DNA of 64,000 nt. Source: Candidatus Micrarchaeia archaeon (GTDB lineage Archaea; Micrarchaeota; Micrarchaeia; Anstonellales; Bilamarchaeaceae). Every line of letters starts with the position of its first letter. Within the stretch, counting starts at the first letter, position 1. Shown one piece after another: positions 24,062-51,900 of this stretch. Where the stretch lies: the NCBI GenBank assembly GCA_041653635.1, contig JBAZFC010000001.1, positions 335,426-399,425 on the forward strand, read 5' to 3'. Below the pieces are notes generated by a model. That model had not been told where the DNA came from. It saw only the letters and a program-made list of their open reading frames with translations, and did not search any database. The position numbers were made by a program, and so were the translations under genes.

Positions 24062-24077
24062 TGTAACCATGGTTACA
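24062..24077. promoter_or_regulatory. 16-bp perfect palindrome TGTAACCATGGTTACA (copy 1), 16 nt upstream of the thrS ATG
   Basis: Exact palindrome read directly; four copies in the window, all intergenic. Confidence 0.5.
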
Positions 24078-35978: not shown

Positions 35979-35996
35979 ATGTAACCATGGTTACAT
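35979..35996. promoter_or_regulatory. 18-bp perfect palindrome ATGTAACCATGGTTACAT (copy 2), ~50 nt upstream of the purF ATG
   Basis: Exact palindrome; about 20 nt upstream of a TATA-like TTTTTAAAAC element. Confidence 0.55.
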
Positions 35997-38989: not shown

Positions 38990-39490
38990 TCAGGGCGTCT
39001 TCTTTAGGCGGTCTTTCTTCACATTCCCCTTAGTGGTTTCCGCCGGGATTCCGATAGGCAGGATGCAGACCGGCCTGCCTTGTTCTTGGAATATCCCCTT
39101 CACCTCTTCATCACTGAACGCACCCACCCATACCGCGCCGAGGCCGAGGTCCGTGGCCGCCAATTGCGCATAGCCCGCGGCGAGGGATGCGTCTATTATG
39201 CAGAATAAATTTCCCCGTTCCCCGTATTTCTTTGAGGAAGACGCCGCATCCGCGAAGAAGACGAACACTGCCGGGGCATCGGAAATGAAACCCTGGTTGA
39301 AGGCGGCCTTTGCGAGCTTTTCCTTAGTTTCTTTTTCAGTAACCAGATAGAAATGGTAGCTCTGCAGGTTGCCTGCGGACGGGGCTAGGTTGGCTGCATC
39401 CTTAATTGTGTCTAGCTGCTTCTGCGCGAGGGGCGAGGGCCTAAACAGCCGCGTGCTCTTCCTTTCCCTTATGAGTTTTTGGAATTCCAT
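38990..39490 (-). CDS. nitroreductase family protein
   Basis: 166 aa; N-terminal RERKSTRLF motif and overall nitroreductase-like pattern. Confidence 0.75.
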   Translation of the reverse strand: MEFQKLIRERKSTRLFRPSPLAQKQLDTIKDAANLAPSAGNLQSYHFYLVTEKETKEKLAKAAFNQGFISDAPAVFVFFADAASSSKKYGERGNLFCIIDASLAAGYAQLAATDLGLGAVWVGAFSDEEVKGIFQEQGRPVCILPIGIPAETTKGNVKKDRLKKTP

Positions 39491-39542
39491 GGCTAAACCG
39501 CCAGCATCAAACTATTTAATCGTTTCACCACATATCAATACT

Positions 39543-42500
39543 ATGAACAAGCACCTGATTTTGCTATTTGCTATTTTTGCAGTGGTTGCCATCCAGGCGG
39601 CTTTTGCCGAAGCGCAGACGAGCTATCCGCGCACATGGGAGGATAGCGGATGGGTTGCGAACAACGAGCACATAATGGACCTGGGCTTCTTTGAGATTTG
39701 GTATAGTGTAGAGCCAACAAACAACATCAGCAGGATGGATGTATTGGGGATCATGCTTCCATTCCATGAAAGCTTAGAAGAGGCGGAGCTTGAGCAACTG
39801 TTGCCGGAATGCCACGGCATCGGCTGCAACTCAAGCTCGGAGCTTGAGAGTGCGTTGCGGCATAAGGAATATGCTGATGGCTTGCTGGATTTCGTACGCA
39901 TCGGAAGCGCCGCATCTACATCCCACCCGGCGTATGACGTCGCTTACGAATGGTACCTAATGCACTATGTGGGGGACTGGAAGGATGCCATGGATTGTTC
40001 ACTACGTGCCGTGGAGAAGGAGGGCGCGGAAGTAAACGGCAGGAGGCTCGCTGTAGAGGCGACTATGGAGGAAGTGGCTAGTTCTGGCATATGTGAATCT
40101 AGGTATTCCGGCCCCGCGAACTGGATATGTTATGCGACTGTGGATGATGTGAGGTGCAACAGCAGCGGGCTGGATGATTCAATCCCTGACATGACCTGGT
40201 ACCCGGCATGCATGAGGACGCATTGGGAAACCGAAACGGTGCTTGGGGAGAAGAACGCCAACATGACCGAAAGCTGGGAGGGGGCGCAGGCAAAACTATC
40301 CGAGCTTGAGGCGTATGCCCTAGACTCCAGGGCGCAGGCGACTGTGCTCATTGACTTGATGACTGCGACAGAACTTGATGGGATAACTGTAAGCGCGGAA
40401 ACCAGCGACATCGGTGGGGTTGCGAGCATAAGTGACGAGTATGCGATCATAAAAAAGGAATATGAAAACGGGAATAAAGCAATGGGGGGTGCGGACACAC
40501 AAGCGAACAGCAGGTCGGATGGATGGTATAAGAAAAAATATGACTCTTATTGGGTGGCTGCCACATATTACGACGACATAGTTGTGAATGGCGCTTTGCT
40601 GTTGGAGGACGCGGAAGCGGTCGTGGCGGATTTTGGAGGTGAGGCGCATGCCGCACTGGCACAGGCGCAGCGCAGCACGAGACTGACCGAGGCGGGGCAG
40701 GCACATCTGGTTGAAGCGGAAATTGCATGCAATTTTGCGGACGCGGAAACAAAGCTCGGCGTCCGGTTCGAGCAATACGGGTCGTGTAGGATGCACGCGC
40801 GGCTTGCGCTGGACGGCACGGACATAGAACAGGCTGCTGAATATGAGGCAGCCGTGCTAGAAGTTGAAAAGCTTATCCAAAATGCGACAACTGATGGGAT
40901 AGACACACGTAATGAGCAGGCGCTCTTCACCATTGTAAAGAACATGAAACCCACAGACGCGGTGGAGATTCTCTCAAGAATCAAATCCAGCATACTCGGA
41001 AAGGCAAGGGTGCTGTATGGGGGCCTGCCTGGAGAAAGGGAAGATGCGAAAGCGCTCATAGAGGGTGGGGGTAGCAGCTTCGCTTACATGAATTCCTGGC
41101 TGGAGAGGGAGGATTGCTATTCGGGAAACGACCTTGATTATGATTGCGCAATCGGTAGCCTGAAGATGATGCACAACGGGTACATGAACATTTTCAATGC
41201 GACCGCCGCCCGGGCTGGTGAAGTGGTGGGCAACGCGATGCTGGTTGATTATTATGAGACTACTACCGCCGCCAGCCTTGACGAAGACAGCGAATACACC
41301 TTGGTTGTGCGGGCCAGAAATACCCTGCCGATGGGAGCGGAGAATGCAGTCATATCAGTTCCAGCCGGCGCGGAGATAGGGAAGATGGACCTTGTTGATG
41401 GAGGCGAGCGCGTGAGGACCGTAGCGTACCAGGACGGGGTCGCGACCATACAGCTTGTGCAGGTTTCGGCTGGAGAAGAAGTGGTGCTTGAATTCAAGAA
41501 AGGGTACCGTCCCTGCGTCGCGTCTGGCATCCGCACCAGCGCGGTCGGGGATGCAATAGGCGGCGCAAAGGTGAGCAGGCAGATGAGCCTTGCCTGTTCA
41601 ATGCAGGTGAACTCAATCAATGTTGGTTCGGGTTTTGATTCTGCGGTGCTGGACGGCACGGCCCACGCAGTCACGGACGGAATACTCAAGGCAAGGATAA
41701 CAAAAGGGACGCATTCCCTGGGCATCGTTGAGCATGTTGCAGACGCGTACGGAATGGACAAGAGCACTGAGTTGGTGACTACAGCCGGGACGATGACGAC
41801 AGTTGCATATATGATAGACATCTCTCCAAAAATGGACCTGGACATGGTTCCAGTATGGGTGGATGAGAGTGGCAAGAGCCCTAGATCTATAGATGTTTTT
41901 GGCTATACTGGGGAGCAAATCAAGAATGTGAAGAAGGACGGTACTGGGGTAGTCTATTTTGAGATAAACGGCTTAGAAGCGGACAAGCTGGCTAAGGTGC
42001 GGGTGAGGTACGAATTCTCCAATATCAGCAGCTATGTTGGGGATAGGATTGATGAGTTGGAGGGTGTGAATATGGGCGGCGAGGCGAGGGCGCTCCTGGG
42101 CAATGCGTCAAACCTTTATGCAGCAGGCGATTACGCAGGTGCCCTGGCTGCGCTGCAGAGCACCGAATCCCAGATTGAGAAAGACGCGAAAGCTGCCGTA
42201 AAGGTGGCTGCGAAGGATAGTGAATTGAGAGCAGAAATTTCAGAGAAGGCGGCAGAACTGCGGGGTGCAATCAACATCGGCGAGGATAATGGTGTGGGTA
42301 GCCAATACCTCCCAGAGATGCGTGCAAGGCTCAGTGTATTGGAAGGCGCGCTTGCACAGAACCTGAGTGTGGGAGCGACCTCCAGCCCGCTTGAGGATGT
42401 GGATTTGGGATGGGAAGGAAAAGAAATAACCAAGATACAGAAATATGTCAAGGACAACGAGGCGAAGATAAAAAAGGATTGGATGGCGATTGGTGTTGAT

Positions 42501-43250
42501 GACGCAAACCTGAGCAGCGCCATTTCAGGGCTTGAGGCACAGGGTGCCGTGTTCTCTGGCACTATGACGCTAGAGGATGGAATGCTCGCACTTGCCGCGC
42601 TGGAAAATGCACAGGATGCGCTTGATGCCCTTAAGGTGAGGGAAGGGGCAAAGGATGCGGTAGAGCGTTCAGCACTATCCAATCTTATAGCCGGAGCCAA
42701 TAGTGTGCTTTCCGAATACGAGGATGAGTATTCAGACCTGCCGTCTGGAGACAGCATGCTCTCGCTCTTTGAAAAGAAGCCGAATGAGATAAAGACGCGG
42801 CTGACGGCACTGAACCGCAGCACCAATACTGATGCCGCAATGGTGGAGGCGGCGCAGCTTAAGGCGGACATGGAGAGCGTGCTCGGTTTCCTTAATGGGG
42901 AAGGGCTGCGAATGATTGCTTCTGCCACTGACCTTTACACCGAATCAAAGGCTACGCTGGGGGAGGATGAAAAACAGGATGTGGAAAACTCCCTGGAAAT
43001 GGCCAACGATTACCTTGACAGCGGCAGATTTGTGAAATCCATCCTGGCAAGCGAGAACACAATCAGCAAGTTGAATGGTGCGGAGTCGGTGGATAACGGG
43101 TTACTTGTTCTTGCCCTCACTGCGCTCCTAGTTATTGGTGCCGTGGCGCTATTGCTATTCCGGAAAGGCAATGTTTGGCCATCAGGAAGTGGTAGGAACA
43201 AACCGAGTTTGAGGAAGCTGAAGAAAATTGAGGTTGATGAATTCGACTGA
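39543..43250 (+). CDS. large cell-surface protein (~1235 aa), signal peptide + C-terminal TM anchor; possible S-layer/adhesin
   Basis: Start at MNKHLILLFAIFAVVAIQAAFA (track ORF from 39369 overlaps the nitroreductase gene); C-terminal hydrophobic helix LLVLALTALLVIGAVALLLF followed by basic tail; many N-glycosylation sequons. Confidence 0.6.
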   Translation: MNKHLILLFAIFAVVAIQAAFAEAQTSYPRTWEDSGWVANNEHIMDLGFFEIWYSVEPTNNISRMDVLGIMLPFHESLEEAELEQLLPECHGIGCNSSSELESALRHKEYADGLLDFVRIGSAASTSHPAYDVAYEWYLMHYVGDWKDAMDCSLRAVEKEGAEVNGRRLAVEATMEEVASSGICESRYSGPANWICYATVDDVRCNSSGLDDSIPDMTWYPACMRTHWETETVLGEKNANMTESWEGAQAKLSELEAYALDSRAQATVLIDLMTATELDGITVSAETSDIGGVASISDEYAIIKKEYENGNKAMGGADTQANSRSDGWYKKKYDSYWVAATYYDDIVVNGALLLEDAEAVVADFGGEAHAALAQAQRSTRLTEAGQAHLVEAEIACNFADAETKLGVRFEQYGSCRMHARLALDGTDIEQAAEYEAAVLEVEKLIQNATTDGIDTRNEQALFTIVKNMKPTDAVEILSRIKSSILGKARVLYGGLPGEREDAKALIEGGGSSFAYMNSWLEREDCYSGNDLDYDCAIGSLKMMHNGYMNIFNATAARAGEVVGNAMLVDYYETTTAASLDEDSEYTLVVRARNTLPMGAENAVISVPAGAEIGKMDLVDGGERVRTVAYQDGVATIQLVQVSAGEEVVLEFKKGYRPCVASGIRTSAVGDAIGGAKVSRQMSLACSMQVNSINVGSGFDSAVLDGTAHAVTDGILKARITKGTHSLGIVEHVADAYGMDKSTELVTTAGTMTTVAYMIDISPKMDLDMVPVWVDESGKSPRSIDVFGYTGEQIKNVKKDGTGVVYFEINGLEADKLAKVRVRYEFSNISSYVGDRIDELEGVNMGGEARALLGNASNLYAAGDYAGALAALQSTESQIEKDAKAAVKVAAKDSELRAEISEKAAELRGAINIGEDNGVGSQYLPEMRARLSVLEGALAQNLSVGATSSPLEDVDLGWEGKEITKIQKYVKDNEAKIKKDWMAIGVDDANLSSAISGLEAQGAVFSGTMTLEDGMLALAALENAQDALDALKVREGAKDAVERSALSNLIAGANSVLSEYEDEYSDLPSGDSMLSLFEKKPNEIKTRLTALNRSTNTDAAMVEAAQLKADMESVLGFLNGEGLRMIASATDLYTESKATLGEDEKQDVENSLEMANDYLDSGRFVKSILASENTISKLNGAESVDNGLLVLALTALLVIGAVALLLFRKGNVWPSGSGRNKPSLRKLKKIEVDEFD

Positions 43251-43252
43251 AG

Positions 43253-44752
43253 TCAGAAATCGCCTAGTCGGGACTGCCCTTTAGCCTGCACTGGAGCATC
43301 TTTTTGTATTTTGCTTTCTGGGGAGAACCTCTTCCTTTCCATTTCCTTCTGTAAAGAGAGGAGGATCTCCTTCATCTTCTGTTCCCGTTTCCTTGAGGCC
43401 CAGAAGTAGTATTCATCTCGCGTGGCGCGCGTCATCAGGACATGCACCGAGCCGTCCTTGAACCTGCCTGCGCGGCCCCTGCGTTGTATGGAGCGGATTT
43501 CGCTGGGTATGGGCTCAAAGAATATGACTGAGTCCACTGCTGGGATGTCAAGGCCCTCCTCCCCAATGGAGCTTGCAATCAATATTTTGAACTCATCTTT
43601 CCGGAACGCGTCCATTGTCTCCTCTTGCATCTTCCTTGTGAAGCCGTCCCGCTTGCCCACGAATATCTTTGAGGAAAACCCGTTCGCGTCCAACACCTCT
43701 TTTATCCTTGTTATCTGGTCCCGGTATTGCACGAACAGGATTACCTTGCTGCCTTTCATTGAAGAGAGGAGGGATAGTAATTTCAGGGTTTTGGGGTGGT
43801 CGCCTGCGGATGATAGGATTTTGAATGCAATCACCATCCCCGGGCGTGCCACCAGTGCGGCAGATGTCCTGGAAGCCGAGGATTTCAGTTTTGCGATGTA
43901 ATTCAGCGCAGGGTGCGGCCCTTGTGTCTGCAGCAACTCCTGCAGATGTATTAGGTGTAAAAGGGCGTAATAGTAGGAAAGAAAGGTATATTTTGCTGGG
44001 TGGCGCATCGCCTGCAGCCTGCGGCCGTACAGCATGAATTGTTTCTTTGAAGTTATGGGTGGTTTCTGGTAGCCGTTGCCTAGTTTTTGGGAAAATTCCC
44101 TGATGAGTGTGATTAGTTGGTTGTCGGCTTCCTTCAATTCGGGGGATAAATCCACTGGAATCCACGACGCAGCCAGTTGTTTTGTGTATGGCTGGATTGC
44201 CGCGTCTGTTTCCACCATAATTTCAATGTTGTTTATGTTTAGGTTGGAGAGAACCTCTTTGATCCTTGCCCTGTCCCCACCAGGAGAGGCGGTGAGTGCT
44301 AGGGAAATGCAGTTTTGCGGCAGGCTTCCGGCGATGGGAACGTACGCGTAATCCCCCACTGCACGATGCGCTTCATCAAAAACAGCCAACGAGGTGTTTT
44401 TCGCAGGGTAAATCCCATTCTTCAGGTCGTTTTTGATTGTTTGGGGGGTAGAAACGAATATCTTTGCTGTGTACAGGGCGGCGCGCTTCTTTTCATTAAC
44501 TTCCCCAGTCACTAGGGAGATGTCCTCGGGGCCAACACCTAAAATTTTTTGTATTGTAAGATAGTGCTGCCTGGCCAATGGTTTGGTTGGTGTCAGGAAC
44601 AGGGATTTCCCTACAGAAAATAAGTTTTCTTTTATCAATGCAAGTGCGATGTGTGTCTTTCCAAGGCCAGTTGGAAGGACAACTAAAGTGCTGCCGTTCC
44701 GCTTCACAGATTCCACAATCTGGGACTGGTAGGGTCGCAGGTCTAACTCCAT
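43253..44752 (-). CDS. superfamily-2 DEAD/DEAH-box helicase, Hef/FANCM-like helicase domain without nuclease domain
   Basis: Walker A LPTGLGKT, DEAH box FDEAHRAVGDY, motif VI QRRGRAGR; start at MELDLRPYQ (44752) preceded by AT-rich promoter-like sequence. Confidence 0.75.
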   Translation of the reverse strand: MELDLRPYQSQIVESVKRNGSTLVVLPTGLGKTHIALALIKENLFSVGKSLFLTPTKPLARQHYLTIQKILGVGPEDISLVTGEVNEKKRAALYTAKIFVSTPQTIKNDLKNGIYPAKNTSLAVFDEAHRAVGDYAYVPIAGSLPQNCISLALTASPGGDRARIKEVLSNLNINNIEIMVETDAAIQPYTKQLAASWIPVDLSPELKEADNQLITLIREFSQKLGNGYQKPPITSKKQFMLYGRRLQAMRHPAKYTFLSYYYALLHLIHLQELLQTQGPHPALNYIAKLKSSASRTSAALVARPGMVIAFKILSSAGDHPKTLKLLSLLSSMKGSKVILFVQYRDQITRIKEVLDANGFSSKIFVGKRDGFTRKMQEETMDAFRKDEFKILIASSIGEEGLDIPAVDSVIFFEPIPSEIRSIQRRGRAGRFKDGSVHVLMTRATRDEYYFWASRKREQKMKEILLSLQKEMERKRFSPESKIQKDAPVQAKGQSRLGDF

Positions 44753-44853
44753 ATAAACATAAATTATGAGAAGAGAATATAATGGGAGGGGAGGGTGTGT
44801 TTCCACTAATATATCTTCGTATGATATGATAAATGATATGAATTTAAAGTAAT

Positions 44854-44869
44854 TGTAACCATGGTTACA
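44854..44869. promoter_or_regulatory. 16-bp perfect palindrome TGTAACCATGGTTACA (copy 3), between the Hef-like helicase start and the pepA 3' end
   Basis: Exact palindrome in an AT-rich intergenic region. Confidence 0.5.
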
Positions 44870-45132
44870 TTGTGATTGAATGTTGGTTTATCTATACGAC
44901 ATAAAAACGGCTTTACGGAATTATAACCGAGTCAAACGCGTCTTTTATTACAACCTAAATCGCAGGGGGTTGAACAAATATTACTGGAAAACAAAATCCG
45001 TCCTTGTTGTGCCCGATAATCTAGGGCATGTTGTGGATCCTTTTTTCAAAGAGTACTCAAAATTCCTCATAGTTTACAAAATAAAATGCCGTGAAATAAA
45101 GGAACTGAAATAGTGGAAATGGGGGGCGTCCC

Positions 45133-50928: not shown

Positions 50929-50946
50929 ATGTAACCATGGTTACAT
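50929..50946. promoter_or_regulatory. 18-bp perfect palindrome ATGTAACCATGGTTACAT (copy 4), between divergent purL and the hypothetical gene at 50995
   Basis: Exact palindrome ~20 nt upstream of TATA-like elements on both strands. Confidence 0.55.
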
Positions 50947-50994: not shown

Positions 50995-51900
50995 ATGCAA
51001 TGCGCATTCCACCCAACACTGTTCCACACCGCTCCCGGGATTGGGCGCAGGCTGGGGTTCAGGGGGCGGATGAACATCCTCCAGGCGATGCGCCACTTCA
51101 AGGACAGCATCCCCACGCACGCCGAGTTTGACGAGCTGCTCCATCTCACCCCAGGCAAGACGCCGCGCGCCCTCACCACCAACGCGGGCACCGGCCTGAT
51201 GCACACCGGCACGTTCCTTGCCTATCCCGGCAAGGGCCGCACATTCCCCGGTCTCTTTGAGTACAAGGACCCCCAAACCAGCCTCTGGCTCTGCCTTGAC
51301 ACCAGGTTCTGCAGCGGCAGGTCCGGCATAGCGGTTATCGTGGAAGGGGATTTCACCCTGCATCACAGCGGAAGGAGGATCCAGATTGTCCCCCAGAACA
51401 AGCCCGCGGTGCTTGAGCAATTCCCCCAGTTCCCCAGCTGGTACGGGTACCACCTTTGCAGGAGGCTGCCCGTGCTGAAAGACGGGGTGGAGGACGAATC
51501 CGGGTTCCACCCCGGCCGTTTTTTGCAGCGCATAGAAGGCCCGTGGCTGGGCGCCCTGGCCCGCACCATGAACAGCGGAAACTCAGACGAGAACTACGTC
51601 CATGCATACGGCGGCCCTTCCCTGGACCGCGCGGTGATCGTCTGGGAGTACTACGCCACGGATGCCAAGCCGGAAAACCCAGCGAACCGCAGGGTATTCA
51701 TAATGCCCGGCGATGGCAGGCCCAAAATCATAACCCCAGACCATGCCGTCCGGGGCCCACCCGCAGAATACCTGAAGGCAAAGAACAGGTGGGACCAGGA
51801 CATGATACTCCATGGCATGGACCCGGCGCACTGCCCCCATCCGGGCCCGCCGCCTATGCCCGAACAATACTTGCCTTCCCCGAAGGCAGGCAAGGCATGA
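50995..51900 (+). CDS. hypothetical protein (~300 aa)
   Basis: ORF with balanced composition, TATA-like TTTTATTAAG ~25 nt upstream; antisense ORF 50968..51510 judged a shadow frame; start may be Met 26. Confidence 0.4.
   Translation: MQCAFHPTLFHTAPGIGRRLGFRGRMNILQAMRHFKDSIPTHAEFDELLHLTPGKTPRALTTNAGTGLMHTGTFLAYPGKGRTFPGLFEYKDPQTSLWLCLDTRFCSGRSGIAVIVEGDFTLHHSGRRIQIVPQNKPAVLEQFPQFPSWYGYHLCRRLPVLKDGVEDESGFHPGRFLQRIEGPWLGALARTMNSGNSDENYVHAYGGPSLDRAVIVWEYYATDAKPENPANRRVFIMPGDGRPKIITPDHAVRGPPAEYLKAKNRWDQDMILHGMDPAHCPHPGPPPMPEQYLPSPKAGKA

Follow-up and report, generated by a model that had tools for sequence, protein, structure and literature searches.

What is the role of a short palindrome that recurs, unchanged, along an archaeal chromosome? 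This question is raised by a 64,000-nucleotide (nt) stretch of DNA from a Candidatus Micrarchaeia archaeon (assembly GCA_041653635.1, contig JBAZFC010000001.1, positions 335,426 to 399,425), hereafter called the window, in which the 16-bp perfect palindrome TGTAACCATGGTTACA occupies positions 44854-44869. The Micrarchaeota belong to the DPANN archaea, which are mostly uncultured, and to our knowledge almost nothing is known about their gene regulation. A search of the literature on this motif, on promoters or regulons of Micrarchaeota and on Cas2-like regulators found no description of them. The original prediction placed the copy upstream of a Hef-like helicase gene and left two options, a regulon broader than purine genes or a dispersed structural repeat. 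As judged from the sequence comparisons presented here, the palindrome is very probably a protein-binding operator. The reading that we favour as a whole, with a probability of about 0.5, is that this operator serves a regulon of nucleotide and DNA metabolism, that it represses a small gene for a 77-amino-acid (77-aa) protein at this locus, and that the product of this gene is its likeliest binder.

The window contains four exact copies of the palindrome, starting at 24062, 35980, 44854 and 50930, and the copy at 44854-44869 had been correctly counted as the fourth of four. All of them fall inside 27 kb. In shuffled windows 0.05 copies of TGTAACCATGGTTACA are expected, and four or more were reached in 0 of 100 shuffles; moreover, allowing up to three mismatches revealed no sites in the window beyond the four exact copies. 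When the copies were aligned with 80 nt of flanking sequence, only the palindrome and the adjoining base were conserved. Among Micrarchaeota sites at large, A or T stands at position -1 in 94%, which is the sole conserved feature of the flanks (one W on each side), and the family consensus reads W-TGTAAC-YATR-GTTACA-W. In the window together with 67 Micrarchaeota loci (541 kb), exact half-sites were found 81 times, half-sites with one mismatch once and with two mismatches nine times (14-20 in shuffles). As a separate observation, the information in the motif is far above what a genome of ~1 Mb needs for specifying a binding site.

The distribution of the motif is equally sharp. An exact-match scan was carried out over one genome per species (185,579 species, 596 Gb), and the matches listed comprise at least 124 exact sites in at least 116 loci. 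Among these matches, 76 of the 124 sites, in 68 loci, come from ~25 Micrarchaeota assemblies, and the remaining 48 are solitary matches, each in a locus of its own, from unrelated bacteria. Chance alone would give ~139 exact sites in 596 Gb and ~0.006 in the ~25 Mb of Micrarchaeota DNA. The Micrarchaeota sites are scattered over long contigs, and several loci orthologous to parts of the window (74-86% DNA identity) have the palindrome at the same place. One contig, L121 (L numbers denote the fetched loci), is 100% identical to the window over the 77-aa and helicase proteins. Viral contigs in IMG/VR gave only seven single matches, which is the chance level, and a link to viruses was ruled out on this ground.

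The copy at 44854-44869 had been described as helicase-upstream, and the geometry then reported is accurate: the palindrome starts 48 nt from a GTG at 44806 and 102 nt from the ATG at 44752, the two helicase start candidates, with the 3' end of the M17 aminopeptidase gene pepA (45133) on its other side. The assignment to the helicase has to be revised, as a conserved gene for a 77-aa protein (44880-45113, + strand), missed earlier, fills the gap between the palindrome and pepA. Its putative TATA box (TTTAAA, 44843-44848, + strand) lies 5 nt upstream of the palindrome. In an alignment of the intergenic region between helicase and 77-aa gene from 10 species, the palindrome is invariant save for one central base and the AAA core of the TATA box is invariant (full TTTAAA in 7 of 10), while the spacer diverges; the ATG of the 77-aa gene follows the palindrome after 4-10 nt (10 nt in the window). 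Since archaeal promoter geometry centres the TATA box near -26/-27 (PMC4158304), we infer that transcription starts at ~44872, with the palindrome spanning roughly -19 to -4. Archaeal regulators repress from sites between TATA box and start and activate from sites upstream of the TFB recognition element (BRE) and TATA box, and MDR1, Phr and TrmBL1/Tgr block RNA polymerase recruitment from the former position (PMC4158304). A symmetric dimer, reading the two TGTAAC half-sites across the YATR centre of the 44854 copy, would in the same way block recruitment of RNA polymerase and repress the 77-aa gene, whose transcript would be leaderless or nearly so.

The linkage between site and gene was surveyed in loci fetched with the 77-aa protein family, and not the motif, as query, which gave 66 non-redundant loci with at least 60 nt of upstream sequence. 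TGTAAC-N4-GTTACA was found upstream of the family gene at 11/12 positions or better in 48 loci and at 10/12 in two more (50/66), and 47 of these 50 sites have their near edge no more than 45 nt from the ATG. Two layouts prevail. In 32 loci the order is TATA box, palindrome, 2 to 13 nt and ATG, and in 15 the palindrome abuts the TATA box; in either layout the site overlaps core promoter elements, which sets it apart from the sites of biosynthetic genes. The palindrome stays with the 77-aa gene where the helicase is not its neighbour (L117, L119), and even L211 and L212, the most divergent members of the family, show the linkage, the latter with one half-site mismatch. The central tetranucleotide is CATG in 21 cases, TATA in 18, CATA in 10 and TATG in 4 (that is, YATR), and sites that share a locus tend to have the same centre (L121, L123-L127, L155). 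As only ~12 sites lie away from the 77-aa gene in 572 kb of family loci, the promoter of this gene is the most conserved location of the motif. Exactness, copy number, the 10-species alignment and the placement across the family all point to an operator in the core promoter of the 77-aa gene.

Elsewhere in Micrarchaeota the sites also follow promoters, in a different register. No called open reading frame (ORF) spans the palindrome at 70 of 80 sites in the Micrarchaeota loci and the window. TATA-like hexamers were located in 247 genes whose upstream spacer measures 50 nt or more; their positions concentrate between -32 and -25 relative to the ATG, and transcripts are therefore largely leaderless. 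The edge of the palindrome stands exactly 37-38 nt from the ATG in 14 of 81 downstream genes. At these promoters the TATA box comes 7-10 nt past the palindrome, ~24 nt before the ATG, which places the sites at about -38 to -53, directly before the BRE. Locus L101 even has a symmetric 37-16-37 divergent promoter between purE and Pop5. Furthermore, sites stay at orthologous positions in species ~75-85% identical in DNA although the spacers around them diverge, and purL retains its site in distant lineages with TATG or CATA as the centre.

The suspicion that the motif reaches beyond purine genes is borne out by what lies downstream. The nucleotide-synthesis targets are purE, purN, purP, purL, purF and carB; those of replication and repair are ATP-dependent DNA ligase, the primase large subunit PriL, and Hef-like and Lhr helicases; and those of translation and RNA metabolism are ThrRS, HisRS, Pop5 and a beta-CASP nuclease (aCPSF-like). 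TBP and proteasome alpha are further named targets. Six of the ~32 downstream families belong to purine or pyrimidine synthesis and four to DNA replication and repair, and many others are unrelated or have no known function. The operator would thus number ~10-60 per genome and serve a Micrarchaeota-wide regulon of nucleotide synthesis, DNA replication and repair, and some translation genes. Because of the strict register at the pur, replication and repair promoters, activation is favoured there: a dimer seated 7-10 nt upstream of the TATA box, outside the core promoter, would contact TFB or TBP, whereas occlusion of the BRE would be the alternative. Ptr2, TFB-RF1 and TrmBL1 activate from upstream through such contacts with TFB or TBP (PMC4158304). 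A TBP gene was found 65 nt downstream of a palindrome in one genome (L055:1934-2242, - strand), and this general transcription factor may be a member of the regulon.

The promoter geometry also bears on a reading at the level of RNA or single-stranded DNA, in which the palindrome would form a hairpin acting as terminator, processing site or attenuator. A stem of 6 bp with a 4-nt loop is possible, all variants of the centre would fall in the loop, and the copy before thrS is intercistronic. However, the predicted fold is weak (-4.4 kcal/mol, z = -0.34, with 71 of 200 shuffles folding at least as well), no T-run follows it, and most copies lie upstream of TATA boxes or in divergent gaps and would hence stay untranscribed. 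In one-sided variants, TGTATC...GTTACA among them, the stem is broken and no matching change restores it. A terminator or known RNA family was rejected on the weak fold, the lack of an Rfam match and these uncompensated half-site changes, and a hairpin in any of these roles is the least probable of the explanations considered.

The same geometry speaks to the structural repeat that the original prediction had left as an option. A selfish element resembling repetitive extragenic palindromic (REP) sequences or miniature inverted-repeat transposable elements (MITEs), spread or homogenised by the adjacent Cas2-like nuclease, would account for identical copies, for a centre that tends to be uniform within a locus and for a nuclease-fold gene beside one copy. 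But the unit is just 16-18 bp, with neither terminal repeats nor target duplications, and the flank conservation that had been named as the sign of a transposable-element terminal repeat is absent beyond one W base. Moreover, the sites hold orthologous promoter positions in diverged species, the purL site persists while its centre changes, the fixed spacing of 37-38 nt is unsuited to a mobile element, and the viral matches are at chance level. Two specific candidates were rejected in this connection. The terminal inverted repeat of a MITE or transposon fails on unconserved flanks and on single copies at orthologous positions. A REP element with its REP-associated tyrosine transposase (RAYT), expected as numerous imperfect palindromes, chiefly at the 3' ends of genes and on both sides of a Y1-transposase gene, fails because the copies are few, exact and phased to promoters, and the adjacent gene encodes a Cas2-like protein and not a Y1 transposase fold. 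With the hairpin being weak and the sites standing at fixed distances from TATA boxes, a dispersed structural repeat no longer fits, and a selfish element is regarded as very improbable.

Turning to the protein encoded beside the 44854 copy, the 77-aa gene is real. It has ~180 homologues, all from Micrarchaeota-type sources and without Pfam domains; 12 residues are invariant across the family, and changes between species fall mostly at third codon positions. The family is known only from Micrarchaeota: a profile search against 1.84 billion representative proteins returned only 74 clusters, nearly all short and of the size of the family. Neither the protein nor 51 family members matched a Pfam or NCBIfam model, Cas2 models included, and a search of PDB sequences with the protein gave nothing. 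In the longer homologues the additional N-terminal sequence is either of low complexity or miscalled, and no informative domain fusion was found. The protein is basic and small (pI 9.9, 9.5 kDa). Its AlphaFold2 model has a mean predicted local distance difference test score of 92.6, and the best Foldseek matches of this model are Cas2 chains, with probabilities up to 1.0 at 17-21% identity; a fold search with it in BFVD gave unnamed matches only.

The predicted structure shares with Cas2 and the VapD-type Cas2-like proteins a beta-alpha-beta-alpha-beta ferredoxin-like fold, a size of ~80 aa and an N-terminal strand that ends in an invariant Asp. Besides escaping the Cas2 models, the family differs from Cas2 in being single-copy and phylum-wide, in having its own palindrome in the promoter and in the Asn/Lys/Arg/Tyr stripe on helix 1. 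This stripe comprises Asn16, Lys19, Arg20, Tyr23 and Tyr24, which are invariant or nearly so and which, by a helical-wheel argument, would share the exposed face of the helix. There is no cas1 or other cas gene in the annotated neighbourhoods and no CRISPR-like array in the window, which rules out a CRISPR association of the gene. In Cas1-Cas2 complexes the Cas2 dimer is known to rest on a DNA duplex of ~20 bp.

These features make the 77-aa protein the best candidate for the binder, with a chance that we would put near even. It is preferred because the site is found in its promoter throughout the family, because its phyletic range equals that of the motif, because no conventional regulator gene recurs beside the sites, and because the helix-1 stripe and the seating of Cas2 dimers on ~20 bp of DNA would suit it to the task. 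The Cas2-fold product would bind its own promoter and act as a negatively autoregulated regulator. We consider it quite possible, though short of an even chance, that the Cas2 fold was exapted in Micrarchaeota, with their reduced genomes, as a negatively autoregulated dimeric transcription factor that reads WTGTAAC-YATR-GTTACAW and acts as master regulator of purine and pyrimidine synthesis and of replication and repair. Protein residues showed no clean correlation with the central tetranucleotide or with half-site variants, and close relatives differ in the centre.

Several points weigh against this account, some of them against the operator and its regulon and others against the binder. The motif is nearly all-or-none and in this respect stricter than typical transcription-factor sites. 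The gene set, though enriched for nucleotide and DNA functions, is mixed, as it also includes a glycosyltransferase, an epimerase, Fic and membrane proteins, and the gene calls in the fetched loci are crude. At thrS, a GGTG Shine-Dalgarno sequence lies between site and ATG and no TATA box is nearby; this copy, which is outside the promoter-phased pattern, may act as a roadblock or as internal control in a secD-thrS transcript. As for the binder, the invariant Asp7 occupies the position of the metal-binding Asp of Cas2 and suits a nuclease as well as a regulator, and we know of no sequence-specific transcription factor with a Cas2 fold. Additionally, 16 of the 66 family loci have no upstream site, and ~120 kb from most of these siteless lineages holds no motif at all, even though helix 1 is conserved.

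The points on the binder speak for the strongest rival, which keeps the operator and the regulon but assigns them to a conventional regulator (winged helix-turn-helix (wHTH), ribbon-helix-helix or similar) encoded elsewhere. The 77-aa protein would then be only the most conserved target, a tightly repressed nuclease or effector and perhaps the partner of the nuclease-less Hef-like helicase, with which it keeps a conserved divergent pairing. Against a conventional regulator, no recognisable transcription-factor gene recurs beside the sites in ~150 loci, apart from one wHTH gene in a toxin-antitoxin-like pair. Moreover, the motif and the 77-aa family share a narrow phyletic range, and a site in the core promoter of the 77-aa gene throughout the family is the usual signature of an autoregulated regulator. 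A conventional regulator is therefore judged the less likely of the two, yet it deserves to be taken seriously. The wHTH gene just mentioned comes from L059:3349-4172, where two palindromes bracket the genes of a 94-aa wHTH protein and a 122-aa RelE/ParE-like protein. This pair resembles a toxin-antitoxin module that has entered a regulated intergenic region; being lineage-specific, with no relatives in other loci, its wHTH protein was rejected as the regulator.

Among known systems, the closest in logic are the archaeal operators with dual function. The Thermococcales glycolytic motif (TGM, TATCAC-N5-GTGATA) is bound by TrmBL1/Tgr; TrmB of Halobacterium recognises TACT-N7-8-GAGTA and also controls purine genes, and autoregulation occurs among these archaeal regulators (PMC4158304). 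Like the palindrome, they are lineage-specific palindromic operators of a metabolic regulon that lie upstream of BRE/TATA at some promoters and between TATA box and start at others. The Micrarchaeota motif differs from them in that it is unrelated in sequence and spacing, far less degenerate, tied to a nucleotide and DNA regulon and found in a DPANN phylum. No TrmB-family match was obtained among the site-adjacent proteins scanned, and the motif TGTAAC-YATR-GTTACA is not of the TATCAC-N5-GTGATA or TACT type. The logic thus matches archaeal dual-function operators, whereas sequence, phylum, regulon and associated protein differ from known systems.

Bacterial counterparts show similar partial likenesses. 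The PUR box of PurR, ACGCAAACGTTTGCGT, is likewise a 16-bp perfect palindrome before pur and pyrimidine genes, and PurR is autoregulated. PurR is a bacterial protein, though, and depends on a helix-turn-helix of the LacI type and a central CG step; no LacI-family protein was seen at the Micrarchaeota sites, and among the matches listed the Micrarchaeota 16-mer in bacteria is isolated, one per locus. The SOS/Cheo box of LexA (GAAC-N4-GTTC) resembles the motif as a hexamer-N4-hexamer palindrome, with targets including repair helicases and ligase-type functions and with its most conserved site in the promoter of the regulator itself. Unlike the LexA system, the Micrarchaeota sites are dominated by pur genes, many of them are positioned as for an activator, and no LexA homologue was seen.

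Likeness to the third bacterial group raises a separate explanation, namely that the sites are loading sites for a chromosome-organising or partition protein, as are parS for ParB and the operators of KorB from plasmid RK2. These, too, are near-invariant perfect palindromes present in several exact copies, and bacterial parS, TGTTNCACGTGAAACA, is similar in form to the palindrome. A 16-bp perfect palindrome with almost no degenerate copies across the phylum, and with four copies within 27 kb of the window, would be in keeping with such a role. KorB operators lie at defined distances from promoters. Nevertheless, the Micrarchaeota sites are tied to the TATA boxes of chromosomal metabolic genes, with strict spacing to these boxes and to start codons; they accompany a partly coherent gene set, occupy the core promoter of one small gene and are spread over long contigs. 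No ParB-family gene was identified, although no search aimed at one was made. Loading sites are therefore an improbable explanation, if slightly less so than a selfish repeat.

The three sister copies in the window illustrate the different placements. The copy at 24062-24077 lies in the secD-thrS intercistronic gap, separated by 1 nt from the stop codon of secD and by 16 nt from the ATG of thrS; in the three species that keep this arrangement (the window, L030 and L094) the two distances are 1-3 nt and 13-17 nt. At 35980-35995 the palindrome follows the nreA stop by 7 nt and precedes the ATG of purF by 50 nt, and the purF TATA box comes ~20 nt after the palindrome; the order nreA-site-purF or nreA-site-purL recurs in five other loci. 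The copy at 50930-50945 separates the divergent purL(-purS fusion) gene and a 301-aa gene, at 53 nt and 49 nt respectively. The 301-aa protein (50995-51900, + strand) has no Pfam or NCBIfam match, and a relative in a related species (L112:1427-2362) shows 35% identity to it.

A further arrangement was observed at three loci (L037:2490-2720, L098:1000-1320 and L038:1785-2155), in which the palindrome follows a conserved tRNA-Ala/Trp/Ala cluster and is itself followed by ~90 nt of near-invariant non-coding sequence, a TATA box and a small zinc-ribbon-like ORF. The conserved block may encode a non-coding RNA or serve as an extended regulatory region. The ORFs called adjacent to the sites in L037, L038 and L098 overlap the tRNA cluster and were discarded as spurious.

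On the other side of the 44854 copy lies the helicase gene (43253-44752, - strand), whose product is a Hef-like superfamily 2 helicase with Pfam DEAD, ResIII and Helicase_C matches. Its match to the Hef model NF010337 (E 6e-142; 474 bits, with a family cut-off of 610) is confined to model positions 16-528 of 781, and the XPF-type nuclease domain is therefore absent. The original prediction left the start at either 44806 or 44752; the ATG at 44752 is the likely one, as orthologues in five species begin there (493-499 aa), and the GTG at 44806 can be set aside. The palindrome lies 101-102 nt upstream of this ATG, and the gene has a TATA box of its own, GAATATAA (44775-44782), 30 nt upstream of it. 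Regulation of the helicase from a palindrome ~100 nt upstream is possible. The divergent pairing with the 77-aa gene is kept in at least 15 loci at 43-89% identity.

Just upstream of the helicase TATA box, a block TAGTGGAAACACACCC(C/T)C (44791-44808, - strand) is near-invariant in 10 species. Its core, GTGGAAAC, resembles the archaeal origin recognition box (ORB). As only one ORB-like copy occurs in the window, binding of a second regulator is the likelier role for the block, and a replication origin in this region was rejected as unsupported. Between the block and the TATA box of the 77-aa gene, an AT-rich stretch with short direct repeats TATGATATGATAAATGATATGAA (44809-44842) is kept in the close relatives of the window and not in more distant species. 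Within the helicase coding sequence itself, two distant lineages have a second exact palindrome, TGTAACTATAGTTACA (L173:1655-1670 and L200:9531-9546), at the same codons (~aa 76-81, IVTIVTG) and besides the one in the shared promoter region. The helicase of L200 (6615-9773, - strand) also contains an intein with a LAGLIDADG endonuclease domain. In the window, a 1293-aa ORF without Pfam or NCBIfam match (39369-43250, + strand) ends 3 nt from the 3' end of the helicase gene.

The present analysis has revealed a conserved small gene that a gene-level reading had overlooked, together with a candidate binding pair that can be tested in vitro without culture, consisting of a 9.5-kDa protein and an 18-bp DNA (palindrome DNA WTGTAACCATGGTTACAW). 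If the 77-aa protein is not the binder, a repressed Cas2-like protein paired with a nuclease-less Hef helicase would be a lead in DNA repair. If it does bind, a fold of CRISPR adaptation would have been turned into a transcription factor. The motif itself defines a sharp and easily searchable putative regulon that extends across the phylum and links nucleotide supply with DNA replication and repair. Should the exapted Cas2 fold prove to be its master regulator, Micrarchaeota would provide an archaeal transcription factor of a new structural class, and the regulon would be the first one defined for the phylum.
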